Below, one piece after another: positions 967-52,186 of a stretch of DNA of 64,000 bases. Both the position numbers and the translations under genes were made by a program. Positions within the stretch are counted from its first letter, which is position 1; every line of letters starts with the position of its first letter. Location of the stretch: positions 484-64,483 of the forward strand of contig JAKACD010000005.1 in NCBI GenBank assembly GCA_021821785.1, read 5' to 3'. This DNA comes from Thermoplasmata archaeon (lineage in GTDB: Archaea; Thermoplasmatota; Thermoplasmata; Lutacidiplasmatales; UBA184). The notes beneath the pieces were generated by a model, which was not told the origin of the DNA, did not search any database, and saw only the letters and a list, made by a program, of their open reading frames with translations.

Positions 967-1032
967 GCGGAAGGCGGGGAGGTCCGGGCTCGCTTAAAGT
1001 TTGGGTCCTCGGCCCGCCGGGCCCGCTCGGGT

Positions 1033-2305: not shown

Positions 2306-2354
2306 GGTTCGACTCGGGGGAATCCTCCCTACGCGGGGTCCGGACTATAAGCGT

Positions 2355-3161: not shown

Positions 3162-3197
3162 CCTATCCCTCCGCGCGACCGACCTCGTCCCGGCCCC

Positions 3198-4808: not shown

Positions 4809-5170
4809 GAACCCTCCGAGCGACGAGCCAAGTGAGGCGGCGTAGGCCGCTGCGGCGACCGGGACCGCGAGGTAGATCGCCGCCGACCGCCAGGCGGGGG
4901 GGAACTTCAGGGGGGACCGGACCCGATGCGCGTCGCCCGCGGCCTCCTCGCTCCGGGGGTCAGTGACCCCCGTCGTCGCTCCCGGACCCTCGACCCGGCG
5001 GACCGTAACTCCCCCTCGCCATGCGTTCGGTCGGGCATGGACCGGGGTGCGACGGCGCTGGCATATTTGTGGAGTATGGTGGAATCGGGCGCTCCCTCAG
5101 CCAGAGGAGGCCCGCGCCGCCGCTCCGCCCGCGGCAACGTTTATCAACGGCCCGACGCTGGCCGACGCGT

Positions 5171-5277
5171 AGCCCCGTAGTGTAGTGGCCAATCATGCGA
5201 GACTCTGGATCTCGCGACGCAGGTTCGAACGCCGCGGGTACACGCGGATCCCACGGCCGGAACTCCTGCCGGGGCTA
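5171..5277 (+). tRNA. tRNA-Gln (anticodon CTG) with 34-nt BHB intron in the T-loop (59/60), intron 5230-5263
   Basis: AGCCCCG/CGGGGCT acceptor stem; anticodon arm CGAGA-CTCTGGA-TCTCG; removing 5230-5263 restores GCAGG-TTCGAAT-CCTGC. Confidence 0.92.
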
Positions 5278-5304
5278 CTTTCTGCGACCTCTCCCTCTCA
5301 TCGT

Positions 5305-5449
5305 GCGGGGGTGCTCCAGCTCGGCCAAACCGTTCTCCGAGAACGGGGCCACCGAGGCAGGGCTTAGGACCCTGTTGCCTAGGGCATGCGCCGGTTCAAA
5401 GGGCCGATCGGCGGTCGCCGCCGACGGCCGGGAACTCCGGCCCCCCGCA
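5305..5449 (+). tRNA. tRNA-Leu (anticodon TAG) with two BHB introns: D-arm 21/22 (5329-5352) and T-loop 59/60 (5401-5435)
   Basis: GCGGGGG/CCCCCGC acceptor stem; CAGGG-CTTAGGA-CCCTG anticodon arm; long variable arm; splicing restores D-stem CTC/GAG and GCCGG-TTCAAAT-CCGGC. Confidence 0.9.
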
Positions 5450-5479
5450 CCTGGCTAGTCCTCCCCAGGTCCTTCGAAG

Positions 5480-6385
5480 ATGCACGCGACCGAGGTCCTG
5501 ACGCCCGAGGAGATCCTCGCCCTGGACCCAGAAGGGGCCGACCGTCTGCTCGATGCCCTCGAGCGAACGGTACCGGTACGGTCGCCGCTCCTTCCGATCC
5601 CGTCCCGCCCGAACGCCGAGCTTCTCGTCTTCGGGGATACCCACGGGGACTGGCGTTCGACCCTCGCCGCGGTCGAGATGGCCTCCGCTCCCGGGACCGA
5701 GCGATGGCTGCTCGGCTTGGGCGATTATGTTGACCGGGCTCCGGACGACCTCCCGAACGGCTCGGTTGCGAACGCGCTGCATCTTCTCTCCCTCGCGGCG
5801 CGCTATCCGGAGCGGGTCTACCTGCTCCAAGGGAATCACGAGACCTCCCGCCGGATTCCTTGCTATCCGCACAATTTGCCGGAGGAGGTCGACGACCTCT
5901 GGGGGCCCGAGGCCGAACGGTACCACCGCCTGGTCGGGCTACTCGAGCGGGGTGCGTACGCAGCCGTGACCGAAAGCGGCGCCTACCTCGCCCACGCGGG
6001 GTTTCCCCGCACCCTGCCGTCCGGATCCTGGCGGTCGGCTTTCGAGGCGATGGATGACGACCGCCTTTCCGAGATCGTCTGGGCCGAGTGCGACGCCTCC
6101 CGCATCCGTCGCGGCGCCGCCCCGTCCTGGGGGGCGCAGGCGCTCTCGGAGTTCCTTGGGGTGACCGGCCTCGGGGTCGTCCTTCGAGGTCACGACCCGG
6201 ACGTGGTCGGCCGCCCGCTCTACGACGGGCGGTGCCTCACGCTTCACACGACCCGGATCTACGAACGCTACGGAGGGGTCATTGTGGCGGTAGTCCCACT
6301 CGGCCGTCGGCTCGAGAGCGTGAACGATCTCCGGATCGAGCATCTGCTGACGGAAGGGCGGTCGTACACGGACGACCGGGACTGA
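5480..6385 (+). CDS. PPP-family serine/threonine protein phosphatase (metallophosphoesterase)
   Basis: GDTHGD, LGDYVDR, QGNHE, AHAG and RGHD motifs. Confidence 0.88.
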   Translation: MHATEVLTPEEILALDPEGADRLLDALERTVPVRSPLLPIPSRPNAELLVFGDTHGDWRSTLAAVEMASAPGTERWLLGLGDYVDRAPDDLPNGSVANALHLLSLAARYPERVYLLQGNHETSRRIPCYPHNLPEEVDDLWGPEAERYHRLVGLLERGAYAAVTESGAYLAHAGFPRTLPSGSWRSAFEAMDDDRLSEIVWAECDASRIRRGAAPSWGAQALSEFLGVTGLGVVLRGHDPDVVGRPLYDGRCLTLHTTRIYERYGGVIVAVVPLGRRLESVNDLRIEHLLTEGRSYTDDRD

Positions 6386-6462
6386 GCCCGGTCGTCCGCG
6401 GTGCATTCGGCTCGCACCACCGCCCGGGGAGATGCCCCCGCGCGGACCGAGCGCCTCCTCGC

Positions 6463-7038
6463 CTAAGCCCCTCCGAACAACCGCCGCTCCTCGGCGAGGA
6501 CCGAGGGGGCGCTCCGCGCCCGTTGGTATGCCTCCAGGCGCTCGCGATTGATCTCGAAGAACGCGTTTCCGCCGGGGAAGCCCGCCAGCATCGCCCGTGC
6601 CGACCCCGCCTCGCCGAGCAGGTAGAGCCCGGCGGCGAGCGCCTCCGCCGTGTTGAGCTCGCCCACCCGACCGTAGTGCTGCGGGTTCGCCGCGAGCAGG
6701 AGCGGCAGGCGTCGGTGGACGCCGCCCCTCGGAAGGCCGCGTTCCGAGCCCCCGAACGATCCGCGTTCCGACAGGCGGTTCCAGGAGCAGTCGACCGCGA
6801 GGAGACCTCCCCGCACCGCGGTCGCCCGGTCCCGCGCCGAGAGGGGCGCCGGGGCGAACGGGTCCAGGACGATCGGCGGGAACCCCCGCTCGTTCGTCCG
6901 GTGGAACGGGTCCGCGAGCCCTCGGTAGAGGAGGCGCCGTCCCGTGCAGCGCTTCGGGTGGTCGTCGCCGACGACCAGCACGAGGCGCCGGACGGGCGCC
7001 CTAGGCCGGGGGCTGGGCGTACTCTCGGAAGATCGCAT
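6463..7038 (-). CDS. tsr3: SSU rRNA aminocarboxypropyltransferase Tsr3 (DUF367 family)
   Basis: [41 protein letters not shown] and [12 protein letters not shown] motifs. Confidence 0.9.
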
Positions 7039-7975
7039 GCAGCTCGCGGGTCAGGCGGAGCGCCTCGGCCCGGGGGCGCTGCCAGAGGTTACGGCCGAAG
7101 ATAATCCCGGTGGCGCCGGCGTCCATCGAGGCCCGGACCTTCGCGAGCAGCTCCGTGTCGCCGACCTTCTCGCCCCCCGAGACCAGCACGAGGGTGCGGC
7201 CGGCGCTCTCCACGACCTTGCGGAACGCGTCCCCCGGCGAGAGCCGGAGCGCGTTGTAGGGGGGCGGGCTCTCCGCGTCCTTCTCGGAGGCGACCGGATA
7301 GTTCACCTTCACGATGTCGGCGCCGAGCTCGAGCGCGACCCGCGCCGCATAGTCGACCGCGTAGAGGCTCTCCTTCCCGCCCTTCTTCGCAACGGCCTCC
7401 CCGCGCGGGTACGCCCAGACGACCACCGGCATCCCGAACCGGTCGGCCTCCCGCCGCACCTCCATGAACTGCCGAAAGTCCCGGTCCTGGGCGGGCGAGC
7501 CGACGTAGACCGTGTAGCCGACCGCGTCGGCCCCGAGCCGGACCGCGTCCTCCACGGTCCCGGTCAGCGGGCTGAACGCCTGGTTGTCCGAGGGGATGGT
7601 GGTCTTGCCGTTCAGCTTCAGGATGAGCGGGACGTCCCCCGCGAACTCGTGGCCGTACTTCTCGGCGAGTCCGATGTGGAGGGCGATCGCACTGAACTTC
7701 CCCTCGTGGGCGAGCTCGTACTGGTAGTGAGGGTCGAGCGACTCCGGGTTCGAGAAGAAGTCGATCGGGCCGTGCTCGAGCCCCTGGTCGATCGGAAGGA
7801 CGAGCAGGGTCCCACCCCCCGGGCCGTGGTCGTAGAGGAGGCGCTTCAGTCGGGTGCGCTTCCCGGGGGAAAGCCCGAGCCGGGAGAGCGCGGGTCGGGG
7901 GAATCGGCGGGGGGACACGGGGCCGCCACCGGGGGCGGTGGAAGCCGGAATGGAGCGGAGGCTGGAGTCGCTCAT
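7001..7975 (-). CDS. Class I fructose-bisphosphate aldolase (DhnA/FbaB family)
   Basis: [37 protein letters not shown] (Schiff-base Lys), SGG and IFGRNLWQR. Confidence 0.9.
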
Positions 7976-8110
7976 GGGAGGACCTCGGGCCGAGCACCGG
8001 CTCGCGCGATTTAACAGTTGGTCTCCTCGACCGGTGGGCCGCCCCCGGCCGAGGATTTATCCCCCGCCCTCCCGTAGCACGGAGCGGCAGGAACGGGATC
8101 CCTCGGGTCG

Positions 8111-8995
8111 ATGCGTCCCCAGGTCGTCATCATCGCAACGGTCGTGCTCAACGCGCTGCTGTTCGTGGCGAACCTGATCATCGCTCGCCTCTCGAACAGC
8201 GACGCCGTACTCGCCCAGGCGATTTACACGATCACCGACCTGGTCGGCTCCGCGCTCCTCCTGTGGGGGCTCTATCTCTCCCGCTTGCCGGCCGACTACC
8301 TCTACCCCTTCGGCCGGGGGAAGGAGCGGTTCTTCTGGGCGTTCGCCTCGATCCTCGTCACGTTCACGACCGCGGGGATCATCGCCATCGTCGCGGGCTT
8401 CGACCAGGCGCTTGCCCCGAAGCCGATCTCCCACATCGGCTTCGCGCTCGCGGTGGTCGTCGTCTCGCTCCTCGTCAGCATCGGCGGCATCTCGATCACC
8501 CTGCGCGAGCTGCGGATCGGCCGCCAGACGCTCCGGGCACTCCTCGAGTCGGCGAACCAGGGGCTCAAGTCGATCTTCTACCAGGACCTCGTCACGATCG
8601 CCGGTTGTGCCGTCGCGGTCGGGGGGCTCACGGTCGTCTACCGGACCGGGCTCGACTACGTCGACGGGCTCACTGCGATCCTCGAGGGGTTCCTCCTCGT
8701 CGCGACCGGCTTCGTCCTGACCGCAGAGAGCCGGGAGTATCTCATCGGGCGGGCGCTCGACCCCGGGGTCGCCCGGGAGATCCTGCATCTCGTCGAGCAC
8801 GACGCCCGGGTCGCGCGCGTGCGCAGCCTGCAATCGATGATCCTGGGCCCCGAGGATGCCCTCCTCGCCCTAAGGATCAACTTCCGGGACGGGCTCACGA
8901 CCGACCAGATCGAGCGTACGGTCGATGAGGTCGGGCAGTCGCTGAAGGAGCACTACCCGATGCTCAGGCACATCGTCATCGAACCGGAGTCCTGA
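8111..8995 (+). CDS. Cation diffusion facilitator (CDF) family transporter
   Basis: Six TM segments, YPFGRGKERFFWAF motif, C-terminal dimerisation domain ending HIVIEPES. Confidence 0.88.
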   Translation: MRPQVVIIATVVLNALLFVANLIIARLSNSDAVLAQAIYTITDLVGSALLLWGLYLSRLPADYLYPFGRGKERFFWAFASILVTFTTAGIIAIVAGFDQALAPKPISHIGFALAVVVVSLLVSIGGISITLRELRIGRQTLRALLESANQGLKSIFYQDLVTIAGCAVAVGGLTVVYRTGLDYVDGLTAILEGFLLVATGFVLTAESREYLIGRALDPGVAREILHLVEHDARVARVRSLQSMILGPEDALLALRINFRDGLTTDQIERTVDEVGQSLKEHYPMLRHIVIEPES

Positions 8996-10226
8996 GCGCG
9001 CCCTCCGGCCGAAGGCTGGTTTCCCGGTACCGCAGGATCGTAAGCACGACCAGGGCGACCGCGATCGAGCCGAAGAAGAGGTAGAGCCCCGGGTTCCCGA
9101 AGTACGCGAAGAGCCCGGTGGAGGCGACGAGCCCGAGGACCATCCCCGCGCTGATGGAGAGAGAGTAGATCGCCATCGTCGTCGCGCGGCTGATCTCCAC
9201 GGAGAGGTCGGCGAGCGCTGCGAGCGCGGCCGGGCCGTAGGCGAGGGCGGCCGGGACGCTCACTCCAAGGCCGACCAGGATCTCGACCCGCGCTCCGAAG
9301 GCGACCACGAGCGAGGCGAAGATCATCAGCGAGGTGAAGCCGATGGCCCCGACCGTCATGAGCCGGGTCCGGCCCCAGCGATCGGAGAGCCGACCGAAGT
9401 ACGGCTGGGTGACCACGAGCAGTAGGCCCCCGACCGCGATCACGCCCGCGAGGAGCTCCGTCGGGACCCCCACGCCGCTCGCGGCGGAGCCGAGGAAGAT
9501 GAGCGCGGTGCCGATGAGCATGTAGATGACGAGCCAGGGGAGCGTGACGAGGAGGACGCTGCGCCGGAAGACGTGCCCAAGGACGTCGCGGAAGACGTAG
9601 TTCGCCCCCGCCGCGTGGGGGGGGAGGCCACGGGCAAGGGAGCGGGCCGAGAAGAGGCCGATCGCAAGCACGACGGCCCCGACCGCGAAGACGAACCAGA
9701 GCTCGGAGTTGGGGACCAGCCCGAGGGCGGCAAAGCCGAAGGCGAAGCCTCCGACCCAGCCGAAGAGGTTCATCGCATCGAAGCGGCCCATCTCGAACCC
9801 GCGCTCGTTGGCGCCCGACCAGTCTCCGATGAGCGCGAGGCTCGCGGCGAGGATCGCCCCGCTCGCCACCCCGAAGAGGAGATTGAGGGTGCCGAGGGCG
9901 AGCGGCCACCGGGTCGTGGCCTTCAGCGCGAAGATCACCGCGGACCCCCCGATGCCGGCGAACAGGACGGGGAATCGTCCGTAGCGGTCCGCAACGGCCC
10001 CCGAGAGCAGGACCGTTGCGAGCTCGCCCACGGGGGCCATGGCGCTGACGAGGCCGACGACCCCGACCTCCCCCTGGCCGATCCCGGCGGTCGAGCGGGT
10101 GATGTAGCTCGCGAAGACCGCGGTCGTGATCCCGAAGGCGAACCGAACGAAGAACGTCGACGAGAAGACCGCGAGGAAGGCCCGACGTCGGGACGATGCG
10201 GCCGCCGGTTCGAGCGCGCCGGACAC
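8976..10226 (-). CDS. MFS transporter
   Basis: About 12 TM; motif A copies GAVADRYGR and GRLSDRWGR; GTG start chosen to avoid overlap. Confidence 0.85.
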   Translation of the reverse strand: MSGALEPAAASSRRRAFLAVFSSTFFVRFAFGITTAVFASYITRSTAGIGQGEVGVVGLVSAMAPVGELATVLLSGAVADRYGRFPVLFAGIGGSAVIFALKATTRWPLALGTLNLLFGVASGAILAASLALIGDWSGANERGFEMGRFDAMNLFGWVGGFAFGFAALGLVPNSELWFVFAVGAVVLAIGLFSARSLARGLPPHAAGANYVFRDVLGHVFRRSVLLVTLPWLVIYMLIGTALIFLGSAASGVGVPTELLAGVIAVGGLLLVVTQPYFGRLSDRWGRTRLMTVGAIGFTSLMIFASLVVAFGARVEILVGLGVSVPAALAYGPAALAALADLSVEISRATTMAIYSLSISAGMVLGLVASTGLFAYFGNPGLYLFFGSIAVALVVLTILRYRETSLRPEGALRTPVR

Positions 10227-15525: not shown

Positions 15526-15671
15526 GTCCAGGACGGGTTCTACGCGCGGATCTCGCTGCGCGAAAGATTCCCTCTACCCGGATCGCGGAAGGCCGTCGAT
15601 CGAGGTCCCGCGGTTCGGGACGCCCGGACCTCCGCGTCCGAGTTCGGGGCGTGCGGCTTCGCGCCGCGTCC

Positions 15672-16457
15672 CTATCCGGTAAGGGAGTCAGTGACGACCT
15701 TCGCTTCCGCGCGGCGGAGTAGCTCGGCCACCGTGCTTCGGCTCACGCCGAGGGCGCGGCTCACATCGGAGAGCCGACCCTTCCGGGGAAACGCGTAGTA
15801 TCCCAGGCTCTGCGCCGTCTCGAGGGCGCGGGACTGGCGCTCCGTCATTCCCTTCGAGGGACGGAACGCGCGCATCGGCACGACCTCGCCCCGTGCGGTC
15901 CCGCCCGTCGCGCCGAACGACCGGAGGACCTGCTGCGCGACCGGTCCTTTCGGGAGGACCACCGTCCAGGGTGGCATGCCGGGGGCCGTGCCGGCGAGGA
16001 AGCGGCAGGAGGTGCAGAACGCACCCTCGGAGATCAACCGGGTGCACACCGGGTTCGCCTTCTCCACGGTCCGAGCGAAGAGCTTCGTCGGACCGGCCCG
16101 GACCATCGACAGCTGCCGCAGCTCGGGTCGGTGACGCAGGAAGCGCTCGACCGACGGCATCGCCTCCGGGCGGACCGAGATCTCCGAGACCTGGAGGAGC
16201 CGCCTTCCGTCCCGACCGATCGTACGGCAGCTTCGGAGGCGGATCCGCGCGTCCCATCGGCTCACGAGTTCTCGGGCCCAGTGAGGGTCCCCGGGGTTCG
16301 GGAGGCGGAACTCGAGGAGGGGCGGCTCCCCGCGATGCGCGACCGAAGGACCCGGGGACGGCCGGCCCTCCCGTCGGGACGGCCGCGCGGGCCGTGCACG
16401 GGCGACGGAGCCGCTCGATCGGCGGCCGAGTTGGCGCCTCACGCCCGCCGGCGACAC
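15672..16457 (-). CDS. HTH_10 (bacterio-opsin activator-type) transcriptional regulator with Cys-containing N-terminal domain
   Basis: C-terminal MTERQSRALETAQSLGYYAFPRKGRLSDVSRALGVSRSTVAELLRRAEAK; start uncertain. Confidence 0.82.
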   Translation of the reverse strand: MSPAGVRRQLGRRSSGSVARARPARPSRREGRPSPGPSVAHRGEPPLLEFRLPNPGDPHWARELVSRWDARIRLRSCRTIGRDGRRLLQVSEISVRPEAMPSVERFLRHRPELRQLSMVRAGPTKLFARTVEKANPVCTRLISEGAFCTSCRFLAGTAPGMPPWTVVLPKGPVAQQVLRSFGATGGTARGEVVPMRAFRPSKGMTERQSRALETAQSLGYYAFPRKGRLSDVSRALGVSRSTVAELLRRAEAKVVTDSLTG

Positions 16458-41671: not shown

Positions 41672-42445
41672 ATGGAGTCGAAGAGGCGCCCCGCGCCGAA
41701 GCGACCTCCGCGGTCGACCGGTAAGGCCCGCGGGAAGGGGACGGAGCTCTCCCCCGCCGAAGCCTCGCCGGGACTCCCGGAACTTCCGCTCATGGAGATC
41801 GATGTCGACGCCGGCCCCTCCACCCACTGGATCCGTGAGGTGATCGACCGCTGGCACCTTCGGGTCCGCATCGACGTCTGCCGGTCCACGGGCGCGGACG
41901 GCTCCTCGCTCCTGCAGGTCGTCGAGCTCATGGGCAACCCGGGCGATCTCGGCGCCGCGGAACGATTCCTCCGCCACCGTGGCGACATCCAGTCGCTCAC
42001 GGTCATGTCGCCCTCTCCGTCCCGCCGCTTCGTGCGTGCGGTGATGGCGTTGCCCGACGCCTGCCGACGCGTATTCGAGGTCGGGGCGATCTGCGGCAAC
42101 TGCAAGTTCGCGCCGACGTCGCGGCCGAACAGCCCGGCCGCGCGATGGACCCTGGTCGTCCCCCGTACGCCCGACTCGCTGCGCGCGGTGGCGCGCGCCC
42201 AGTCGGGCCCGAGCAGCCCTCCGGCGCCGATCCTTCGGATGCGGCGTTTCGTACCTCCCCGGACCCTCACCCCCCGGCAGACGGCCGCGCTCGAGACCGC
42301 GTATCGTCTCGGCTTCTACGCGTTCCCCCGCCGTTCGAACCTCCGGGAGATCTCTCGTATTCTCGGAGTGAGCCGATCCACGACCGCCGAGCTCCTGCGT
42401 CGGGCCGAGGGCAAGATGCTCGCCCAGCAGATCGGCGAGACCTGA
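41672..42445 (+). CDS. HTH_10 transcriptional regulator, paralogue of 15672-16457
   Basis: LTPRQTAALETAYRLGFYAFPRRSNLREISRILGVSRSTTAELLRRAEGK; shared Cys pattern. Confidence 0.85.
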   Translation: MESKRRPAPKRPPRSTGKARGKGTELSPAEASPGLPELPLMEIDVDAGPSTHWIREVIDRWHLRVRIDVCRSTGADGSSLLQVVELMGNPGDLGAAERFLRHRGDIQSLTVMSPSPSRRFVRAVMALPDACRRVFEVGAICGNCKFAPTSRPNSPAARWTLVVPRTPDSLRAVARAQSGPSSPPAPILRMRRFVPPRTLTPRQTAALETAYRLGFYAFPRRSNLREISRILGVSRSTTAELLRRAEGKMLAQQIGET

Positions 42446-42493: not shown

Positions 42494-43279
42494 CTAGCGG
42501 CTCCGTCGCTTCGACTTCTTCGCGAAGCCGCTCACCGCGGCCCGATTCTCGTCGCTCCCCCGAAGGGGCTCCGCGAGATCCTGCTCGAGCTGTAGCCCAT
42601 CGACGAGCGCCAGATCGAGACCTCGGCGGATCGACTCCCGCGCGTGGCGAACCGCCCGGGGCGGATGTGTGGCGATCCGGGTCGCAACCGCGAACGCCTC
42701 GGACCTCAGACGGTCGAGGGGCACGATCCGGTTGATGAGCCCGATCTCGTAGGCCCGCGCGGCGGGGATCGGCTCTCCGGTCAGGATCATCTCGAGGGCG
42801 AGGTTCGGCGCGATCGCTCGGGGCAGCCGCTGCGTGCCGCCCTGACCGGGGATGATGCCCCACCGGACCTCGGGGAGACCGAAGATCGCGTTCGGACTGG
42901 CCAGGCGTACATCGCATGCGAGGGCGAGCTCGAGTCCAAGACCGAGACAGTAGCCGTTGATCGCCGCGACGACCGGCTTACCTGTGTCGAGATTGCGGGT
43001 AAGGCCCCCGATGCCCGGCTCGCGGGCCCAGCGCGCCCGCCGCTCGCCCGGCTGGGATTCCGCGTAGAACTCCGAAAGGTGCTTGAGGTCGATCCCGGCC
43101 GAGAAGGCCCGGTCGCCCGCCCCGGTGAGGAGGCCCACCCGCAGCCGGTCATCCTCCCGGAGCCGCTTCCAGGCTGCGAGCAGCTGCGCGTGCGAGGCGG
43201 GGTCGATCGCGTTGAGCGCCTCGGGACGGTCGAGTGTGATGGTCAGTACCGGTCCTCGCGCGCGTACTCGCACCGGCAC
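42494..43279 (-). CDS. Enoyl-CoA hydratase/isomerase family protein
   Basis: LDRPEALNAI, AFSAGIDL, AAINGYCLGLGLELALACD, FGLPEVRWG. Confidence 0.9.
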   Translation of the reverse strand: MPVRVRARGPVLTITLDRPEALNAIDPASHAQLLAAWKRLREDDRLRVGLLTGAGDRAFSAGIDLKHLSEFYAESQPGERRARWAREPGIGGLTRNLDTGKPVVAAINGYCLGLGLELALACDVRLASPNAIFGLPEVRWGIIPGQGGTQRLPRAIAPNLALEMILTGEPIPAARAYEIGLINRIVPLDRLRSEAFAVATRIATHPPRAVRHARESIRRGLDLALVDGLQLEQDLAEPLRGSDENRAAVSGFAKKSKRRSR

Positions 43280-43522
43280 GGGGCTCGCGAGCGGCCCGGG
43301 GTTCTTGTGATTATCCCCGTGTCCGGTCCCGGGTCTCGAGCCCAGGGGCCCGAACGACCCGGTCAGGGGAGGGTCCACCCGCACCGGTCAGGCCGGGACT
43401 AGAAAATAATCCGGCGCTGGCGCGCCCCGACTTTCGGCGCCTCGGGGAGGGCTCACGGGAATCCCTTACAGGTACGGGGGAATGGACTTCGCGGCTCTTC
43501 CTGATAGCGCCGCGAGGGAGTC

Positions 43523-44635
43523 TTGTCGGCGCGCACCCGTCCCACCGCGGTCCGAGAGTCGGAGGACGAGGCAGCGGCCGACCCAATCACCCCGCTCGAG
43601 CCGGAGTCCGCCACGTTCCACGACGTTCTCCTCGAGCGGTCCGGGGGCATCGCCCGCATCACGCTGAACCGGCCGGAGGCGTACAACGCCTACAGCACAC
43701 GCACACTCCGCGAGCTCGCCCGAGCGACGTGGGAAGCGGCGGTCGACGACCACGTCGGGGTCATCGTCCTTACCGGGGCCGGGACCCGCGCCTTCTGCAC
43801 CGGCGGCGACGTGAAGGAGTATGCCCGTCGGTTCCTCAAGCGACCGCACGACTACTGGAAGTACATGGCCGTCTTCCGAGAGGCGGTCGAAGCGCTCCTG
43901 CGGTGCGGGAAGCCCGTGATCGCGCGCCTCAACGGGATGGCCGTTGGGGGCGGCAACGAACTCCACCTCGCCTGCGACATGTCCGTGGCCGCGTCCCACA
44001 TCTACATCGGCCAAGTCGGGGTCGGCGTCGGCTCGGTCGCTGCCGGCGGGGCGACCCAGTGGCTTCCGCTCGTCGTCGGGGACCGCAGGGCCCGCCAGAT
44101 GCTGTTCCTGAACGAGCGGATCCCCGCCGCCCGCGCGGAGGAGTGGGGGCTCGTGACCGCCACGGCACCCTCGGTCGTTCGAAACGGAGAGTGGGTGGCC
44201 TCCCCGACTGCGGAGGAGATCGGCTGGGCCCAGAAGGAGGAGCGAGGGTATCGCATCGACCTTCGGAAGCTCGACGATGCCGTCGACGGCCTCGCGAAGC
44301 GCCTTCTCGGAATGTTCCCCGAGTGCCTCCGGTACACGAAGGCCCAGACCAATTACTGGAAGGAGCTCGTCTGGAACCAGACGGTCCCGCATGCCCAGGA
44401 GTGGCTCGCGCTCCACTTCGCCACCGCCGAGCCGTTCGAAGGGATGCACGCGTTCGTCGACAAGCGGCCGGCCCGGGTCGCTGAGCTCCGCCAGCGGATC
44501 GCCAAGGACGGCAGCGGCGACTACCTCCACGGCAGTCCATCGCGATCGTGCGGCAGCTGCGGCGAGACCGGGCTCGCCGAGCAGTTCCGGTACTGCGGCC
44601 GCTGCGGTTCTCCGTTGGCCCCCGAGGGCGGCTAA
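43523..44635 (+). CDS. oah: 6-oxocyclohex-1-ene-1-carbonyl-CoA hydrolase (Oah/BamA-like) with C-terminal zinc ribbon
   Basis: Crotonase fold with YNAYST, AFCTGGDVKEYA, GSVAAGGATQWLP, FPECLRYTK...YWK, EWLALH; operon context. Confidence 0.82.
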   Translation: MSARTRPTAVRESEDEAAADPITPLEPESATFHDVLLERSGGIARITLNRPEAYNAYSTRTLRELARATWEAAVDDHVGVIVLTGAGTRAFCTGGDVKEYARRFLKRPHDYWKYMAVFREAVEALLRCGKPVIARLNGMAVGGGNELHLACDMSVAASHIYIGQVGVGVGSVAAGGATQWLPLVVGDRRARQMLFLNERIPAARAEEWGLVTATAPSVVRNGEWVASPTAEEIGWAQKEERGYRIDLRKLDDAVDGLAKRLLGMFPECLRYTKAQTNYWKELVWNQTVPHAQEWLALHFATAEPFEGMHAFVDKRPARVAELRQRIAKDGSGDYLHGSPSRSCGSCGETGLAEQFRYCGRCGSPLAPEGG

Positions 44636-44676
44636 CGGCGTCGGGCCGGTAGGGGTCGGAAGGAGGTCTTGGGTCG

Positions 44677-45954
44677 ATGGCAGCAGCGAAACCCGAGCCC
44701 GCATTCCTCACGACCGCGCGCGACCGCCAGCGCGAGATGGTGGAGCAGTACTACTCGGATCTCGCGAGCGCCGGCGGTCCGAAGCGGCCCGTCGCGTACA
44801 TGCTCGTGGGCGGGAACCTCACCGAGATCGTACGGTCGTTCGGCTTCGAGGTCGTCTTCCCGGAGATCGTCGCGCTGAACTGCGCGATCAAGCACGTTTC
44901 GCTCCCCAACATCCTGCATGCCGAATCCCAGGGGTACGGGCTCGACGTCTGCGGCTATGTGAAGAACGACCTCGGGCTCCAGGAGCTCGGGGGCCAGACC
45001 CCGTTCGGCCGGATCCCGCCGCCCGACCTGCTCGTCTGTAGCTTCTCGGGCTGCTATGTCTACGTGAAGTGGTGGGAGGCGCTCGCCGAGAAGTACGGCT
45101 GTCCCCTGTTCATGCTGGACGTCCCGTACATGCGGGACGCCGAGCCCCAGGCCGAGGACATCCAGTACCTCGTCACCCAGCTGAACGAGTTCATCGCGCT
45201 CCTCGAGAAGATCACGGGCCGTTCGTTCGACCTGGCCGAGCTGCGCAAGACCCTCGCGCGCTCCCGGAAGGCCGAACAGGGGTGGGTCGACTACCTCGCC
45301 TCCGGTAAGCATCGACCGTCGCCGATCGAGGCGTACTTCGAGGCGGTGTTCTACATGTTCCCGATCAACGTCCTGCGCGGGACCGACGTCGCGGCCGACT
45401 TCTACGCCACGGTGAACGAGGAGGTGCGGGCGCGGATCGCGGAGGGGCACTACCCCGTCCCGGAAGAGAAGTTCCGTCTCGTCGTCGAGGGGGTGCCCCC
45501 GTACCCGAGCTACCGGACCTTCTGGGACTTCTTCCGCAAGTGGGGGGCGGTCTCGGTCGCCGCTACCTACCCGAAGGTGGGGGGACTGTTCGACCGGGGC
45601 TTCCTGCACGACCCGGCGCGGCCGCTCGAAAGCATCGCCGAGTACTCCCTCGGCGCCTACGTCAACCAGTCCTGGCCGCTACGTCGCCAGATCATCGGGG
45701 AGTACATCCGCGACTTCGAGGCCGATGCCGTGCTCATTCACGGGATCAAGTCGTGCCGATCGTTCACGGCCGGTCAGGGCGACCTGCGTGACCGGCTGAT
45801 CCACGACCACGGGATCCCCACCCTGTACATCGAGTCGGACCACGAGGACCCCCGCTACTTCGCCCCGGCGCAGATCAAGAACCGGATGGACGCGTTCTTC
45901 GAGTCGCTCGACCGACGCCGCGGGTCCGTCCCGCTCCCGGTGGTGAACGCATGA
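44677..45954 (+). CDS. bcrB: Class I benzoyl-CoA reductase subunit B
   Basis: GNLTE...PEIVAL, DVCGYVKND, PDLLV..FSGC...KWWE, YPKVGGLFD, IHGIKSCRSF, DPRYF..AQIKNRMDAFFE. Confidence 0.85.
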   Translation: MAAAKPEPAFLTTARDRQREMVEQYYSDLASAGGPKRPVAYMLVGGNLTEIVRSFGFEVVFPEIVALNCAIKHVSLPNILHAESQGYGLDVCGYVKNDLGLQELGGQTPFGRIPPPDLLVCSFSGCYVYVKWWEALAEKYGCPLFMLDVPYMRDAEPQAEDIQYLVTQLNEFIALLEKITGRSFDLAELRKTLARSRKAEQGWVDYLASGKHRPSPIEAYFEAVFYMFPINVLRGTDVAADFYATVNEEVRARIAEGHYPVPEEKFRLVVEGVPPYPSYRTFWDFFRKWGAVSVAATYPKVGGLFDRGFLHDPARPLESIAEYSLGAYVNQSWPLRRQIIGEYIRDFEADAVLIHGIKSCRSFTAGQGDLRDRLIHDHGIPTLYIESDHEDPRYFAPAQIKNRMDAFFESLDRRRGSVPLPVVNA

Positions 45955-46739
45955 CGCTGGTCGCCGGGGTCGACATCGGCTCGACGACGGCGAAGTGCGC
46001 CCTCCTCGAGGCCGGCGAGGTCGTGGGAAAGTCGCTCGCCCCTGTCGGCGTCGAGCTCGTCAAGGACGCGGAGCGGGCCCTCGAGCAGGCGCTCGCCGAA
46101 GCCGGTCGCGAGCGGCGCGAGGTGGCGGTGGTGACCGGGACCGGCTACGGCCGCTTCAAGGTGAAGTTCGGGCAGTTTGCGGTGACGGAGATCGGGTGCC
46201 ACGCGAAGGGGGCCCACTACCTGTTCCCGGCCACCCACCTGGTGCTCGACATCGGGGGCCAGGACACGAAGGCGATCAAGGTCGACGCGCAGGGCGAGGT
46301 GGTCGACTTCGCGATGAACGACAAGTGCGCGGCGGGAACGGGGCGGTTCCTCGACGTCTGCGCCGCGGCGCTCGGCTACGACGTGAGCGAGATCGGGACC
46401 CTCTCGCAGGGCGCGCGTCGCCCGGTGAAGGTCACGAACACCTGCACGGTGTTCGCCGAGTCGGAGGTCACCTCCTACGTGGCCCGCGGCAAGGACCCGC
46501 GCGACATCCTGGCGGGGCTCTACGCGGGGATCGTCAGCCGATCGCTCTCGCTGATGCAGCGGGTCGGGGTCGAGCCCGAGGTCACCTTCACCGGCGGGGT
46601 CTCGAAGAACGAGGGGATGGTGCGGACCCTCGAGCAGCGGCTCGGCTTCAAGGTGAACGTGAGTCCGCTCTCCCAGTACGTCGGGGCGATCGGAGCGGCC
46701 CTCTACGGGCTCGAGCGCACGGAGGGCACCAGCGCATGA
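45951..46739 (+). CDS. Benzoyl-CoA reductase ATP-binding activase subunit (BcrA/BcrD family)
   Basis: GVDIGSTTAK, TGYGR, DIGGQDTK, MNDKCAAGTGRF, TCTVFAESEV. Confidence 0.88.
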   Translation: MTLVAGVDIGSTTAKCALLEAGEVVGKSLAPVGVELVKDAERALEQALAEAGRERREVAVVTGTGYGRFKVKFGQFAVTEIGCHAKGAHYLFPATHLVLDIGGQDTKAIKVDAQGEVVDFAMNDKCAAGTGRFLDVCAAALGYDVSEIGTLSQGARRPVKVTNTCTVFAESEVTSYVARGKDPRDILAGLYAGIVSRSLSLMQRVGVEPEVTFTGGVSKNEGMVRTLEQRLGFKVNVSPLSQYVGAIGAALYGLERTEGTSA

Positions 46740-47554
46740 TCACCTGCGGGCTCGACCTCGGCGCGGGGACGACGAAGGGGGTCCTCCTCGAGGACGGCCG
46801 CACCCTCCTGACGTCCGGCCTCGTCCCGACCCGTGGCAACCCGGTCGAGGCGGGGCGCACGGTCCTCGAACGGATGGTCGAGGACATCAACCTCCTTCCC
46901 GACGAGGTCGACTACCTCTGCACGACCGGGGGGGCGCGGTACACGTACCCCGACCGGCACCTCCAGGTGAGCGACATCACCGCCTCGGGCCGAGGCGCGG
47001 TCTTCCTCTTCCCGAACACCCGGCACGTGGTGGACATCGGCAACCAGTCGTCCCGCGCGATGTCGGTCACCGAGACCGGGCGGGTCGTTCGGTTCAAGAT
47101 GAACGAGAAGTGCGCCGCGGGGGCGGGGCGCTTCGTGGACCGCTGCGCGAAGTACCTCCAGGTCCCGCTCGACGAGATGGCGCCGAAGGCGCTCACCGCC
47201 GCCCACCCGAAGACGATCTCGAGCGTCTGCGCGGTGCTCGCCGAGACGGAGATCATCAACAACGTGGCCGAGGAGGTCCCGTTGCCGGACATCCTGATGG
47301 GGGTCTTCCTCTCCCTGGCCCAGCGCGCCTACATCCTGATGCGCAATGTCGGGATCCAGCCTGAGGTCTCGCTCGTGGGCGGCCTCGTGCAGAGCGAGGC
47401 GATGGTGCGGGCTCTCGAGCAGACCGCCCACGTTACGATCAACGCCGATCGTCGAGCGCAGCACGCCGCGGCGATCGGGGCGGCGATGCTCGGCTACGCC
47501 CGGCTCCAGAAGCTCGGCACCCGACCGACCCCGTTACCGGCGGCGGTGGCGTAG
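46736..47554 (+). CDS. Second benzoyl-CoA reductase activase subunit (BcrD-like)
   Basis: MITCGLDLGAGTTK, TTGG, MNEKCAAGAGRF, SSVCAVLAETEIIN; ATGA overlap with the previous gene. Confidence 0.85.
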   Translation: MITCGLDLGAGTTKGVLLEDGRTLLTSGLVPTRGNPVEAGRTVLERMVEDINLLPDEVDYLCTTGGARYTYPDRHLQVSDITASGRGAVFLFPNTRHVVDIGNQSSRAMSVTETGRVVRFKMNEKCAAGAGRFVDRCAKYLQVPLDEMAPKALTAAHPKTISSVCAVLAETEIINNVAEEVPLPDILMGVFLSLAQRAYILMRNVGIQPEVSLVGGLVQSEAMVRALEQTAHVTINADRRAQHAAAIGAAMLGYARLQKLGTRPTPLPAAVA

Positions 47555-47557
47555 CCG

Positions 47558-48793
47558 ATGGCGGCGTCACCGGCCCTGGAGTCCTCCGCGTCCCTCGACT
47601 CGCCGCCTTCCCTCGAGCTGAGCGACTCGTTCGAGGAGTTCCGCCGCGCGGCCTCGATCGATGCGATCACCCGACTCGCCCGAGAGGTGCTGCTCGACCC
47701 GACGTATCCGACCGTCCGGGCCTGGACCCGCGCGGGGCGGGGCGCCGTGGGCTGCTTCCCGGTCTACACTCCGCAGGAGCTCATCCACTCGATGGGCCTG
47801 CTTCCCGTCTCGCTGCACGGCGGCGGCGAGAGCGTGGAGATCAGCCACGCCGACGCGCCGCTCGGCTCGTTCCTCTGCTCGATCAGCAAGTCGACGCTCG
47901 AGCTCGCCATGACGGGGCTCATGGCCCCGTTCCGGGCGTTCGTGTTCCCGTACATCTGCGACGTGAGCCGGAACCTCGAGGGGATCTTCTCCCGGGCGGT
48001 TCCGAACGCGACGACCCACATGCTCCACCTTCCCCAGAACTTCCAGTCGAAGGCCTCCGTGCCGTTCCTCGTCGCCGAGTACCGCCGCCTGATCGCGAAG
48101 CTCGAGAAGGCGGGCGGCGAGCCGTACCGGCCCGAGCGCCTCGTGGAGTCGATCGAGCTGTTCAACCGGCAGCGGGCCGAGATCGCCCAGCTCACCGCGA
48201 CCCAGCGCGCGGAGCCGGGGAAGCTCACGCTCACCGAGTCCTACCTTATCCGTCGGCTCGGCGGGCTCCTCCCCCGGGAGGTCCATCTCGAGCTGCTCGG
48301 GCGCGTCCGGAAGGAGCTCGGGGCGCGACCGAACCGGAGGAAGGACGCGATCCGGGTCCTGCTCGTCGGATCGTTCTGCGAGCAGCCGACCCTCGACCTC
48401 ATCGACCTCATCGAGCAGGTCGGCTGTTACGTGGTCGACGATGAGCTGCTCCAGCTCCACCGCTGGTACGACCGTGTCGAGCCCTCCGGCGATCCGCTCG
48501 AGAACCTCGCGGCGACCTACGTGAGGAGCCCCGTCGATATCGGGGTCCGGGCCGCGCCGACCACCAAGGCCGCGGCGATACGACAACGCGTGGATGCGGC
48601 CGATGCCCAGGGCGTGATCTTCCTCACGGCGAAGTTCTGCGAGCCGGCGCTCGAGGACGTGGTGCTGTACCGGAAGGCCCTCGACGAGCGGAAGATCCCG
48701 TACCTGCATCTCGAGTTCGAGGAGCGTTCGGCCGCGTACGAGCAGTCCCGCCTGCAGCTCGAGACGTTCGTCGAATCGATCCTGTTCGACTGA
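47558..48793 (+). CDS. bcrC: Class I benzoyl-CoA reductase subunit C
   Basis: GCFPVYTPQELIH, SFLCSISKSTLEL, FPYICDVSRNL, GSFCEQP, KFCEPAL, QLETFVESI. Confidence 0.85.
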   Translation: MAASPALESSASLDSPPSLELSDSFEEFRRAASIDAITRLAREVLLDPTYPTVRAWTRAGRGAVGCFPVYTPQELIHSMGLLPVSLHGGGESVEISHADAPLGSFLCSISKSTLELAMTGLMAPFRAFVFPYICDVSRNLEGIFSRAVPNATTHMLHLPQNFQSKASVPFLVAEYRRLIAKLEKAGGEPYRPERLVESIELFNRQRAEIAQLTATQRAEPGKLTLTESYLIRRLGGLLPREVHLELLGRVRKELGARPNRRKDAIRVLLVGSFCEQPTLDLIDLIEQVGCYVVDDELLQLHRWYDRVEPSGDPLENLAATYVRSPVDIGVRAAPTTKAAAIRQRVDAADAQGVIFLTAKFCEPALEDVVLYRKALDERKIPYLHLEFEERSAAYEQSRLQLETFVESILFD

Positions 48794-48807
48794 GGAGGTC
48801 GATCGAG

Positions 48808-49575
48808 GTGGCCCCGGGAACGGTGACCGTCGCGCGAGAGGGCCCGCGCGCGAGCGTGACGTGGGACCGGCCGCCCCTCAATGTCTTCGACATCCCCCTT
48901 CTCACGGAGCTCGCGGCGGCGCTCCGCAGCGAGCCGGTCCGCTCGGCGCACGTCGTGGTCGTCGGCGGGGCCCGCCATCGGTGGAGCGCGGGCTTCTCCG
49001 TCGAGGACCACATGGCCGACCGGGTCCATCCGATGTTCGCCGCGTTCCGCGATGTGCTGACCGCGTTCTCGGAGCTCCCGCCCCCCATCGTGGCCCGGGT
49101 CGAGGGTCCGTGCCTCGGAGGCGGGCTCGAGATGCTGCTCGCCTGCGACCTCGCGATCGCCGGGGCGTCCGCGACCTTCGGGCAGCCCGAGATCCGTCTC
49201 GGCGTCTTCCCTCCCTTCGCGGCCGCGGTGATGGAGTCGGCCGTGGGGCCCCAGCGGGCCGCGGAGCTCCTCCTCCTCGGGGAGACGCTGGGTGCGGAGC
49301 GGGCGGCGGCGATCGGGCTCGTCTCCCGGGTCGTGCCCGAGGAGGCGCTCGAGGCCGAGGTGGATCGGACCGCGACCCGCCTTTGCGGGCTCCGGCGCGA
49401 GGCGCTCGTTCTCCTCAAGAGCGCGATGCGACGGGAGGGTTCTTCCGTCGCGAGCCGTCTCGCCCGGGCCGAGAAGATCTACCTCGAGGAGCTGATGCGC
49501 CTACCGTCCGCCGAAGAGGGACTCCGGGCCTTTCTCGAGAAGCGCGAGCCGGTCTGGCCGGCCGGGGGACCGTGA
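48808..49575 (+). CDS. dch: Cyclohexa-1,5-diene-1-carbonyl-CoA hydratase
   Basis: RPPLNVFD, SAGFSVEDH, GPCLGGGLE, GQPEIRLGVFPP, EKIYLEELM...EGLRAFLEKR. Confidence 0.82.
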   Translation: MAPGTVTVAREGPRASVTWDRPPLNVFDIPLLTELAAALRSEPVRSAHVVVVGGARHRWSAGFSVEDHMADRVHPMFAAFRDVLTAFSELPPPIVARVEGPCLGGGLEMLLACDLAIAGASATFGQPEIRLGVFPPFAAAVMESAVGPQRAAELLLLGETLGAERAAAIGLVSRVVPEEALEAEVDRTATRLCGLRREALVLLKSAMRREGSSVASRLARAEKIYLEELMRLPSAEEGLRAFLEKREPVWPAGGP

Positions 49576-50606
49576 GCGCGACGATGCGGGCCGCGGTCCT
49601 TCCGGCGCTCGGCGAGAAGCTCCGTCTCGCGGAGATCCCGAAGCCGGAGCCTGGCCCGGGCGAGGCCCGCGTGGCCGTGATCGCCTGCGGGTTCTGTCAC
49701 ACCGACCTCCACTACCTCGACCATGGGGTCGCGACGGCCAAGGCCCCTCCTATCGTCCTGGGCCACGAGATCTCCGGACGGGTCGACGCCCTCGGTCCCG
49801 CGGCCGAGGGGGTCGCGATCGGGGACCGGGTCCTGGTCCCCGCAGTGCTTCCGTGCGGGTCCTGCGAGTACTGCCGGACCGGGCGCGAGAACATCTGCCC
49901 GAAGATGCGGATGGTCGGGAACCACATCGATGGCGGCTTCGCGGAGTTCGTCGTGGTGCCCGCGAAGGACCTCATTCGCCTCCCCTCGGAGATCGACCCG
50001 GTCACGGGCTGCGTCATCTCCGACGCGCTCACGACGCCGTACCACGCGGTGGTGAATCGAGCGCAGGTCCGCGCGGGCGAGCGGGTGGTGGTCGTGGGAT
50101 GCGGGGGGGTCGGGATCAACGCGGTCCAGTTCGCCCGGGTGGCGGGAGCGGAGGTCATCGCGGTCGACCTCAACGACCGCAAGCTCGAGGTGGCCCGCAC
50201 CCTCGGGGCCACGGAGACGGTCAACCCGACCCGCGTCGACGACGTCGGGAAGGCGGTCCGTAAGCTCTGGGTCGACGGGGCCGACGCGACGATCGAGGCG
50301 GTCGGCAGCCCCACGACGATCGCCACCGCCTTCTCGACCTTGCGCCGGGGGGGGCGTCTCTGCCTCCTCGGGTACAGCAGTGCGCCCGCGGTCCTGCCGG
50401 CCCCCCGCGTGATGTTCCTCGAGTACTCCGTCATCGGGTCGCTGGGCTGCCGCCCCGGCGACTATCCCCGGGTCGTCGAGCTCGTTCGGCAGGGTCGCGT
50501 CCGTCTCGACCCGGTCGTGACCGGGCGCGTTCCGCTCGAGGAGATCGAATCGGCGGCCGCCCTCCTTCGCAAGGGAGAGGGCTTCCGTACCGTAGTCCAA
50601 CCATAG
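49572..50606 (+). CDS. had: 6-hydroxycyclohex-1-ene-1-carbonyl-CoA dehydrogenase (Zn-dependent ADH family)
   Basis: CGFCHTDLHY, LGHEISG, VPAVLPCGSCEYC, GNHIDGGFA, DALTTPYHAV; operon context. Confidence 0.8.
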   Translation: MSATMRAAVLPALGEKLRLAEIPKPEPGPGEARVAVIACGFCHTDLHYLDHGVATAKAPPIVLGHEISGRVDALGPAAEGVAIGDRVLVPAVLPCGSCEYCRTGRENICPKMRMVGNHIDGGFAEFVVVPAKDLIRLPSEIDPVTGCVISDALTTPYHAVVNRAQVRAGERVVVVGCGGVGINAVQFARVAGAEVIAVDLNDRKLEVARTLGATETVNPTRVDDVGKAVRKLWVDGADATIEAVGSPTTIATAFSTLRRGGRLCLLGYSSAPAVLPAPRVMFLEYSVIGSLGCRPGDYPRVVELVRQGRVRLDPVVTGRVPLEEIESAAALLRKGEGFRTVVQP

Positions 50607-51706: not shown

Positions 51707-52186
51707 ATGATCCGACTCGTTCCGATGGACGAGAACGATTTCGCCCGCTATCTGGCCCGCGCGATACCTCGCCGGGCCGAACGATACGTTGCCCGGGGGG
51801 TCTGGAAGGAGGAGCGCGCCCTGGAGACGAGCCGTCAGCTCTACGCCCAACTCCTCCCCCAGGGCGCCTCGACCCCGCACCAGCACTTCGTGCGGATCGT
51901 GGAAAGCGCTACCGAGACGAGCGTGGGCGAGGCCTGGTACCACACCGAGGAGGTGGGCGGGGTGGTCCAGTTTTGGATCGAATGGATCACCATCGAGCCC
52001 GAGCATCGTCGGAAAGGGTACGCCTCGGCCGCCCTAGATCTCCTCGAACAGGAAGCGCGGCGGCTCGGCGCCACGCGGACCGGGCTCGACGTCTGGTCCG
52101 ACAACCCCGGGGCGTTCGAGCTCTATCGAAAGCAGGGCTACCGGACGATCCGCCAGAGCCTGGTCAAGCCGCTCGACGACAAGTGA
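51707..52186 (+). CDS. GNAT acetyltransferase
   Basis: IEPEHRRKGYA, LDVWSDNPGAFELYRKQGY. Confidence 0.88.
   Translation: MIRLVPMDENDFARYLARAIPRRAERYVARGVWKEERALETSRQLYAQLLPQGASTPHQHFVRIVESATETSVGEAWYHTEEVGGVVQFWIEWITIEPEHRRKGYASAALDLLEQEARRLGATRTGLDVWSDNPGAFELYRKQGYRTIRQSLVKPLDDK

Follow-up and report, generated by a model that had tools for sequence, protein, structure and literature searches.

A conserved operon in a Lutacidiplasmatales-type archaeon predicted to encode a divergent class I aryl-CoA reductase and ring-opening enzymes

Enzymes that use ATP to reduce the ring of aryl-coenzyme A (CoA) thioesters have been described in several forms. The benzoyl-CoA reductase (BCR) of Thauera aromatica, BcrCBAD, is built from four subunits, two HGD-D proteins and two ATPases. 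The enzyme of Ferroglobus placidus is of the Azoarcus/Bzd type. BzdNOPQ of Aromatoleum sp. CIB (PDB 8s02) holds the active-site [4Fe-4S] cluster of BzdNO through Cys95, Cys128, Cys380 and a water ligand, with Glu65 and His131 beside the cluster; Tyr97 of BzdO lies at the thioester, and BzdN carries an [8Fe-9S] cluster on six Cys (PMC11971306). The 3-methylbenzoyl-CoA reductase (MBR), MbdONQP, has been solved as well (PDB 9g87, 9gai, 9gal, 9gba). The 2-hydroxyacyl-CoA dehydratases, represented by HadBC and HadI (PDB 3o3m, 4eht), share the fold family; they employ one homodimeric activator and use ATP catalytically. Here we examine positions 43523-50606 of a window of 64,000 nucleotides (nt), the whole stretch of DNA that was analysed, from a Thermoplasmata archaeon (GenBank assembly GCA_021821785.1, contig JAKACD010000005.1, positions 484 to 64,483 of the forward strand). 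Judged by its sequence, this region is a real, conserved and divergent class I aryl-CoA reductase operon of the BCR/MBR group with ring-opening enzymes, and it probably encodes the central steps of oxygen-free aromatic-acid breakdown in a Lutacidiplasmatales-type archaeon.

Related systems have been reported in other archaea. A type I reductase is described for F. placidus (PMC6500515); bcrABCD together with Dch, Had and Oah has been inferred from metagenome-assembled genomes (MAGs) of Hermodarchaeota, in a paper that also cites composite seep-sediment Thermoplasmata and Bathyarchaeota (PMC8163825); and Candidatus Yaplasmales has been reported as the first group of Thermoplasmatota with anaerobic aromatic potential (PMC9239135). 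These reports concern marine or hot anoxic settings, whereas the present operon belongs to an aerobic or facultative soil order high in guanine and cytosine (GC). An earlier note on this DNA, made from the sequence alone, had proposed an archaeal variant enabling anaerobic aromatic degradation; its family placement stands, but bcr clusters with downstream genes had already been reported in Thermoplasmata and other archaeal MAGs (PMC8163825, PMC9239135). The Lutacidiplasmatales are described as archaea of acidic soils with an aerobic or facultatively anaerobic lifestyle, ~69% GC and genomes of ~2.1 Mb (PMC9287336). The words benzoyl, aromatic, benzoate and dehydratase are absent from the main text of that paper (PMC9287336); in two of its supplements the one match to such terms is 'Benzoyl-CoA oxygenase component B', a BoxB-like entry, and its other supplements may bear on this. 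The JGI annotation of these proteins reads 'benzoyl-CoA reductase subunit B'.

The operon comprises seven genes on the + strand, for proteins of 370, 425, 262, 272, 411, 255 and 344 residues, in the order ech1 (Oah-like), B, Q, P, C, ech2 (Dch-like) and adh (Had-like). Along it, Pfam detects ECH_1, HGD-D, BcrAD_BadFG, BcrAD_BadFG, HGD-D, ECH_1, and ADH_N with ADH_zinc_N. The window has 64-73% GC in 2-kb steps (68% for the DNA overall), so most long open reading frames (ORFs) in it are spurious; genes were told from such ORFs by third-position GC, with one gene called per stretch, and all seven show the high third-position GC of real genes in 68% GC DNA. Three of the six junctions overlap, with ATGA at B/Q and Q/P and GTGA at ech2/adh. 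The others leave 3 nt (P/C), 14 nt (C/ech2, after GGAGG) or 41 nt (ech1/B, after AGGAGG). The position of the seven coupled, co-directional genes and their ATGA or GTGA overlaps agree with the earlier note. For all seven proteins a benzoyl-CoA dearomatisation model is the best or near-best match in NCBIfam.

The core of the operon encodes two HGD-D subunits together with two unlike BcrAD/BadFG ATPases, as expected of a class I reductase. For all four proteins the best equivalog-type match in NCBIfam is a BCR model, ahead of the dehydratase, Bzd and double-cubane models. B scores highest on BcrB (Table 1; cut-off 486.55), then on HadB (174.9 bits) and BzdO (113.3 bits); C scores highest on BcrC (cut-off 421.15), then on HadC (180 bits), the double-cubane model (128.3 bits) and BzdN (74.4 bits). 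Among solved structures, the best match of each of the four subunits is the corresponding chain of 3-methylbenzoyl-CoA reductase (E 1e-49 to 1e-83). The runners-up are HadBC and HadI, BzdNO and the double-cubane protein: HadBC is the second-best solved match of B and C, the two ATPases reach 169-216 bits on HadI, and BzdO and BzdN stay at 111.9 and 78.1 bits. The Thauera-type models (NCBIfam TIGR02259-02263, TIGR03189, TIGR03200 and TIGR03201) supply the best matches of B, C and the Oah-like and Had-like proteins, and B and C are, in line with the earlier note, closer to the Thauera BcrB/BcrC models than to Bzd or dehydratase models.

The residues expected around an active-site cluster are in place. 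In HMMER alignments, Cys92, Cys126 and Cys360 of B fall on Cys95, Cys128 and Cys380 of BzdO, and Tyr94 on Tyr97; Glu63, within an FPE motif common to MbdO and HadB, lies two residues off the column of BzdO Glu65. All 71 of 71 B homologues from related loci (44-88% identity) keep these three Cys as well as Glu63 and Tyr94. The three Cys and a Glu are common to dehydratases too, and are necessary, not sufficient, for a reductase; three Cys, a Tyr and a nearby Glu are likewise what B has in common with BzdNOPQ, a fellow member of the BCR/HAD radical enzyme family (PMC11971306). The pocket differs: Ser44-Ala45-Trp46 of BzdO is replaced by Val-Gly-Gly in B. In C, Cys107, Cys134, Cys274 and Cys361 are invariant in 62 of 62 homologues and Cys290 in 61; all five are common to MbdN, while Cys66 is kept in only 37 of the 62. 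Homologues reach down to 42-44% identity across the sets of 62-71 in which these residues are invariant.

The ATPases Q and P (262 and 272 residues) share 36% identity. For each of them, 69 of 69 homologues retain Cys126 and Cys165, so that each ATPase offers two Cys for a bridging [4Fe-4S] cluster; we take these to be the ligand positions of HgdC. Q covers only positions 229-429 of the 432 in the BcrA model and has no long alpha N-terminal part (~228 positions); it scores 186.2 bits on BcrA (cut-off 578), and P scores 146.8 bits on BcrD (cut-off 312.85). The absence of the BcrA extension had been noted before as unusual. The lengths hold, but the oddity does not: MbdQ and MbdP of the solved 3-methylbenzoyl-CoA reductase have 269 and 273 residues, short ATPases also occur in related loci labelled Terriglobia and Methanomassiliicoccales, and outside the canonical Thauera/Rhodopseudomonas type the short form is the rule. 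The phosphate-2 motif of Q is the canonical DIGGQDTKA, kept in 60 of 69 homologues.

The descent of B was traced from an exhaustive search of 50%-identity representatives, which returned 1813 relatives (E <=0.001). Sixty full-length representatives were labelled by NCBIfam (E <=1e-60), the labels being model scores and not named sequences: 2 pass the BcrB cut-off (P0125, 814.6 bits; P0126, 630.1 bits), 9 are best on BcrB under the cut-off, 36 are best on HadB, all under the cut-off, and 13 show no match within this threshold. The representative P0137 marks the MBR clade with 479.6 bits to MbdO. Two trees were built, for B only, a quick one of 68 rows and a careful one of 44 rows (12 dehydratase-like outgroup rows, 10 loci-derived rows); C, Q and P are placed by the ranks of their model and PDB scores. 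The two trees agree, and both group B with P0125 and P0126. The dehydratase-like rows part from B at 100/100 in the careful tree, and in the quick tree 44 such rows do so at 100 by the Shimodaira-Hasegawa-like approximate likelihood ratio test (SH-aLRT). A clade of 7 MBR-like rows that includes P0137 (100/100) excludes the B of the window, which falls among Thermoplasmata, Heimdall and Methanobacteriota-labelled sequences in a clade supported at 99/97. This archaeal clade has an Acidobacteria clade as its sister (94/83); the two join the canonical BcrB group (100/99, careful tree) in a 24-row group at 83/89. By the tree, B is nearer in descent to the Thauera type than to the MBR type, though MBR is the one solved.

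The operon departs from the Thauera/Rhodopseudomonas BCR type by the model cut-offs and by the missing long alpha subunit; here the order is B-Q-P-C, there C-B-A-D, and here the Oah-like protein carries a zinc ribbon and the cluster has no ferredoxin gene. With MbdONQP it shares short ATPases, the five Cys of the gamma subunit and an aromatic residue (Phe or Tyr) in the His131 column, yet its B stands outside the MBR clade and reaches just 232.8 bits on MbdO. It lacks the His131 and the six-Cys [8Fe-9S] ligation pattern of BzdNOPQ. It likewise has neither the single activator gene nor the tree placement of a dehydratase, and branching with HgdAB, FldBC or HadBC, which the earlier note had named as the outcome that would overturn it, is not what the tree gives. 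That note's description of a distinct archaeal variant was sound as to a separate clade and overstated as to the rest, given the Acidobacteria sister.

One scan of species genomes yielded 75 loci, 65 archaeal-type (one of them titled 'bacterium' and one Halobacteriales) and 10 from Acidobacteria/Terriglobia; order was read by tblastn with a match over >=60% of each query. The order B-Q-P-C is found in 46 of the 75, all archaeal-type, so the position of bcrC after the activases, once thought unusual, is a trait of the lineage. The full seven-gene order is kept in 36 loci, and 28 also keep a divergently transcribed eighth gene, ech0. The classical order C-B-Q-P appears in 14 loci, 5 of them distant and archaeal-labelled and 9 from Acidobacteria, and the remaining loci are interrupted by contig ends or frameshifts. 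The three ring-processing genes are also kept in the distant C-B-Q-P loci L053, L054, L057 and L064. The Terriglobia/Acidobacteria loci L068-L077 combine C-B-Q-P with short ATPases; in L068 a BadH-like short-chain dehydrogenase/reductase lies upstream (271.7 bits, cut-off 431.2), a Rhodopseudomonas-style partner instead of a Had-type one.

Within the order, the cassette is a common but accessory trait. A B match (E <=1e-80) is present in 7 of 10 genera and in 35 of 72 high-quality genomes (>=90% complete, <=5% contaminated); the order-wide counts include the source genome and one unpublished positive genome (G167). The nearest homologues of B, at 100-70% identity, come from MAGs titled Thermoplasmata, Euryarchaeota or Thermoplasmatota archaeon, and those next in line, at ~60%, from Heimdall-type Asgard MAGs. 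A MAG titled Candidatus Lutacidiplasmatales archaeon shares its GTDB genus with the source genome, and the host label Thermoplasmata-like, proposed from the letters alone, agrees with all of this.

The three ring-processing enzymes are of the zinc alcohol dehydrogenase plus long-crotonase type, not of the BadH/BadI type. Oah (TIGR03200) and Had (TIGR03201) are the top NCBIfam models of ech1 and adh, although both score under their cut-offs. For ech1 the Oah score compares with a cut-off of 464.45, and MenB and BadI follow at 150 and 146 bits; its best PDB matches are MenB structures and span residues 31-217 only. The start codon, TTG, is uncertain. The C-terminal ~45 residues (window 44500-44632) form a CxxC-(17-18 residues)-CxxC zinc ribbon, which lies outside every solved crotonase match and recurs in 56 of 58 ech1 homologues, the exceptions being a frameshifted fragment and an unrelated Acidobacteria crotonase. 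For adh the Had cut-off is 338.65 and the next model scores 200.4 bits. The assignment of ech2 to Dch (TIGR03189) is weak because the generic EchA19 model (134.3 bits) and Dch (131.5 bits, cut-off 292.5) are close and Dch is under its cut-off; it rests mainly on position.

Table 1. Features of the operon and its upstream flank (window coordinates)
Feature	Coordinates	Strand	Evidence
HTH_10 (bacterio-opsin-activator type) transcription regulator, candidate pathway regulator	41672..42442	+	Pfam HTH_10, 62.3 bits
ech0, generic enoyl-CoA hydratase (crotonase)	42497..43273	-	Pfam ECH_1 195 bits; NCBIfam EchA19 225 bits, under cut-off
16-bp near-palindrome CCCTTACAGGTACGGG, candidate operator/promoter element	43463..43478	.	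~45-60 nt upstream of ech1
ech1, Oah-like crotonase	43523..44635	+	NCBIfam dearomat_oah 200.7 bits
B, catalytic beta-like subunit (BcrB/MbdO type)	44677..45954	+	TIGR02260 358.8 bits; MbdO 232.8 bits
Q, first ATPase, alpha-like, MbdQ type, short form	45951..46739	+	MbdQ 283.5 bits
P, second ATPase, delta-like, MbdP type	46736..47554	+	MbdP 171.8 bits
C, gamma-like subunit (BcrC/MbdN type), predicted electron-transfer Fe-S subunit	47558..48793	+	TIGR02263 239.8 bits; MbdN 255.7 bits
ech2, Dch-like crotonase, dienoyl-CoA hydratase candidate	48808..49575	+	NCBIfam EchA19 134.3, dienoyl_CoA_hyt 131.5 bits
adh, Had-like Zn-dehydrogenase, 6-hydroxycyclohex-1-ene-1-carbonyl-CoA dehydrogenase candidate	49572..50606	+	dearomat_had 247.4 bits

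The flanks of the operon hold a candidate control system. Divergent from it stands ech0, which probably serves lower beta-oxidation, and beyond ech0 lies a gene for an HTH_10 regulator, a homologue of which is found within 41 related loci and directly adjoins ech0 in 10 of these (51-72% identity). The palindrome in front of ech1 has the consensus CCCTTACCGGTAAGGG; allowing <=3 mismatches within <=260 nt upstream of ech1, it is present in 43 of the 54 loci with enough upstream DNA and in 0 of 54 control windows. Its distance from the ech1 start in related loci is mostly 53-62 nt. The element may serve the neighbouring HTH_10 regulator as its operator, or else be part of a promoter. Half-site-like repeats, AACCGGTnAGG, are seen upstream in some related loci. 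Across the source genome, a scan at <=3 mismatches finds 16 matches, against 6-10 in 5 shuffles; apart from those at the two clusters, the matches lie near genes for a dienelactone hydrolase and adenylate kinase and near a MoxR ATPase region, and this genome-wide set contains no coherent regulon and no ligase. One 2-mismatch copy, at ~38369 of contig C3 (2970 in locus L082), lies 22 nt upstream of a gene of the dienelactone-hydrolase family (L082 2992-3741). Another, at window 15670-15685, overlaps the 3' end of a second HTH_10 gene (15675-16265, - strand). Downstream of the operon are a gene of the streptomycin-adenylyltransferase family (PF04439; 50680-51555, - strand) and a GNAT acetyltransferase gene (51707-52183, + strand), neither of which is kept beside the cassette across related loci.

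The rest of the pathway was sought in the source genome, of which the contig with the operon (C75) is a part: 1.69 Mb in 99 contigs, 0.19% contaminated. It encodes 7 acyl-CoA dehydrogenases, three 2-oxoacid:ferredoxin oxidoreductase alpha subunits and, on contigs C19 and C36, small 2x[4Fe-4S] ferredoxin ORFs; the oxidoreductases and ferredoxins could supply electrons. Two family III CoA-transferases are candidate alternative activators. The two AMP-binding genes other than the best benzoate-CoA ligase match encode an acetate-CoA ligase and a generic ligase, the latter truncated at a contig end. The earlier note had found no CoA ligase or ferredoxin gene in the window, and the contig indeed has no AMP-binding ligase and no CxxCxxCxxxCP ferredoxin motif; the genome search that it suggested brought to light the oxidoreductases and ferredoxins, and no benzoate-CoA ligase over the cut-off. 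Its word 'complete' thus suits ring reduction and ring opening, but not activation, as a dedicated benzoate-CoA ligase is not found in the genome. For the aerobic benzoyl-CoA route, BoxB gave only a 79.8-bit partial match, to a PaaA/PaaC-family protein. On contig C36 (~198600-200860; L084 2099-4362), this di-iron protein lies beside a 469-residue crotonase with a long N-terminal extension; the pair is possibly an aerobic epoxidase-type module for aryl- or phenylacetyl-CoA.

The assembly also contains a second set of these genes. At 488-10107 (L002, L085), contig C4 (11.3 kb) repeats all eight genes and their order, with proteins 59-77% identical to those of the window. The palindrome again lies upstream of the cluster, a hemerythrin gene (1424-1951) separates ech0 from ech1, and an HTH_10 gene (9151-10107, - strand) is found downstream. 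The B of C4 shares 90% identity with that of a closed Thermoplasmata chromosome in which the cassette occurs once, and 5 of 5 other genomes checked for copy number are single-copy. Contigs of run X1, the likely source, cover the examined part of C4 fully; run X5 contains 0.86 of the words of the window cluster yet matches C4 only in 18-19-nt pieces, run X7 matches it in low-depth pieces and run X9 only in short ones. As contigs show presence and not absence, the runs give at most a weak hint that C4 comes from another population. We lean towards the view that C4 was mis-binned from a co-occurring relative and does not hold a true paralogue.

From gene content, order, conservation, family and ligand residues, we infer the cofactors, the electron path, the direction of the reaction and, above all, the substrate. 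Q, P, B and C would form a heterotetrameric class I aryl-CoA reductase in which Q and P hold a bridging [4Fe-4S] cluster through two Cys from each. The ATPases would take an electron from reduced ferredoxin and, by ATP hydrolysis, bring it to very low potential; it would then travel by way of the Fe-S cluster in C to the [4Fe-4S] cluster that three Cys hold in B. At this site a thioester of the benzoyl-CoA type would undergo reduction to a cyclic dienoyl-CoA, the invariant Glu63 donating the proton. The Dch-like, Had-like and Oah-like (MenB/BadI-related) enzymes may next carry out hydration, oxidation of the alcohol and hydrolytic ring cleavage, giving a product of the 3-hydroxypimelyl-CoA type, which ech0 and the beta-oxidation genes of the genome may process further. 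We favour a reductase because the operon has a pair of unlike ATPase genes, a feature of the four-subunit reductases, and because the ring-processing genes lie in the same translationally coupled unit, with the full order kept in the loci counted above. The substrate is likely to be an aryl-CoA of some kind; that it is benzoyl-CoA itself we suggest more tentatively, as a proposition slightly short of evenly balanced.

Several observations weigh against this reading. None of the seven proteins reaches its curated equivalog cut-off in NCBIfam, and the scores therefore mark the seven as relatives, not as certified orthologues; B shares only 43-45% identity with the representatives above the BcrB cut-off. 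For ech2 the Dch model ties with that of a generic hydratase, and in the PDB adh does not discriminate between generic zinc alcohol dehydrogenases (185 bits) and solved Had (7quy/7qul, 177/176 bits). Position His131 of BzdO is Tyr129 in B and Phe in MbdO. C has five invariant Cys, not six, and no Cys at the 'ddqC' position of BzdN and the double-cubane cluster protein. P reads DIGNQSSRA at phosphate-2 (residues 100-108, window 47033-47059), against DIGGQTMKA in MbdP, and its clade reads D[IV]G[TSAN]Q[AS][ST]R, a degenerate motif throughout, which hints at unequal nucleotide sites in the two ATPases. The cluster contains no ferredoxin gene. A genome-wide model search for benzoate-CoA ligase gave at best 228.1 bits (cut-off 375.25), on a FadD/PimA-like protein, and PaaK was not found in the genome; at 91% completeness, with 9% missing, these absences are soft. 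The distribution is patchy, with B matches in 64 of 186 genomes of the order. The support throughout is computational.

Among the alternatives, the one that survives best keeps the machinery and changes the substrate, to methyl-, hydroxy-, amino- or halo-benzoyl-CoA or a partly reduced or bicyclic ring thioester, with the ring-opening trio handling the matching dienoyl-CoA. The separate position of the B clade from canonical BcrB and MBR, with all models under their cut-offs, the missing ligase orthologue, the replaced BzdO pocket residues (Val-Gly-Gly, Tyr) and a nearest solved enzyme that is a methylbenzoyl-CoA specialist all agree with such a change, and the diverged C4 copy, if real, would fit two substrate ranges. 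The downstream trio, however, best matches the plain benzoyl-CoA route, two full close-type B copies occur in only 2 of the 64 positive genomes (the source genome and G045), and nothing in the sequence points to any particular substituent. We consider it possible, though somewhat unlikely.

A bolder alternative, which we think distinctly unlikely, is an uncharacterised fourth subtype of ATP-driven aryl-CoA reductase whose centre lies in archaea (Thermoplasmata, Heimdall-type Asgard and Methanobacteriota-labelled) and which works in an aerobic or facultative order of soil and mine drainage that is not known to degrade aromatics. Such an enzyme may spend less ATP per electron pair or use a different electron-storage cluster, because of the degenerate P motif and the five-Cys gamma site, and its substrate may be a non-benzoyl aryl-CoA made without a classical benzoate-CoA ligase.

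Another reading makes the operon an accessory island, silent, reversed or decaying, that today plays no part in aromatic catabolism. The patchy spread and the haem-copper oxidase of the host (subunit I, 478 bits), set beside an oxygen-labile enzyme class, speak for this, but class I enzymes are typical of facultative anaerobes (PMC11971306). Moreover, the frames are intact, the ligand residues invariant, and order and cis-element conserved across dozens of species at 58-88% identity, which points to purifying selection and makes a silent island very unlikely. Least credible of all is a 2-hydroxyacyl-CoA dehydratase of amino-acid fermentation (HgdAB/HadBC type) with a duplicated activator: the pipeline of NCBI uses the name '2-hydroxyacyl-CoA dehydratase family protein', B and C do score on HadB and HadC, and HadI and HgdC are close matches of both ATPases, but the 100/100 split, the clearly higher BcrB and BcrC scores, two unlike ATPases in place of one homodimeric activator, and Oah-like and Had-like partners rather than a CoA-transferase or enoate enzymes leave it barely tenable.

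A class I aryl-CoA reductase operon of the BCR/MBR group thus best accounts for these genes. Public DNA runs in which the operon stretch is present carry the labels mine drainage, sediment and wastewater; no RNA run is listed among those public for the 7-kb stretch, which is evidence neither for nor against expression. For the specialist, the locus is confirmation with some new detail and not a surprise, because the pathway, the enzyme family and its occurrence in archaeal MAGs are already in print and the JGI annotation exists. The new details are the zinc ribbon on the Oah-like enzyme, the degenerate ATP motif of P, the upstream palindrome and the second copy on C4. If the operon is active, a widespread order of high-GC archaea of soil, peat and mine drainage could break benzene rings in anoxic microsites, with the cassette in about a third of the species genomes of the order and in half of the high-quality ones. 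The first archaeal class I reductase of the BCR/MBR group would then be open to biochemistry, for which the compact single-operon form with short ATPases may be convenient to express, and archaea would join the organisms that turn over lignin-derived and pollutant aromatics on land.

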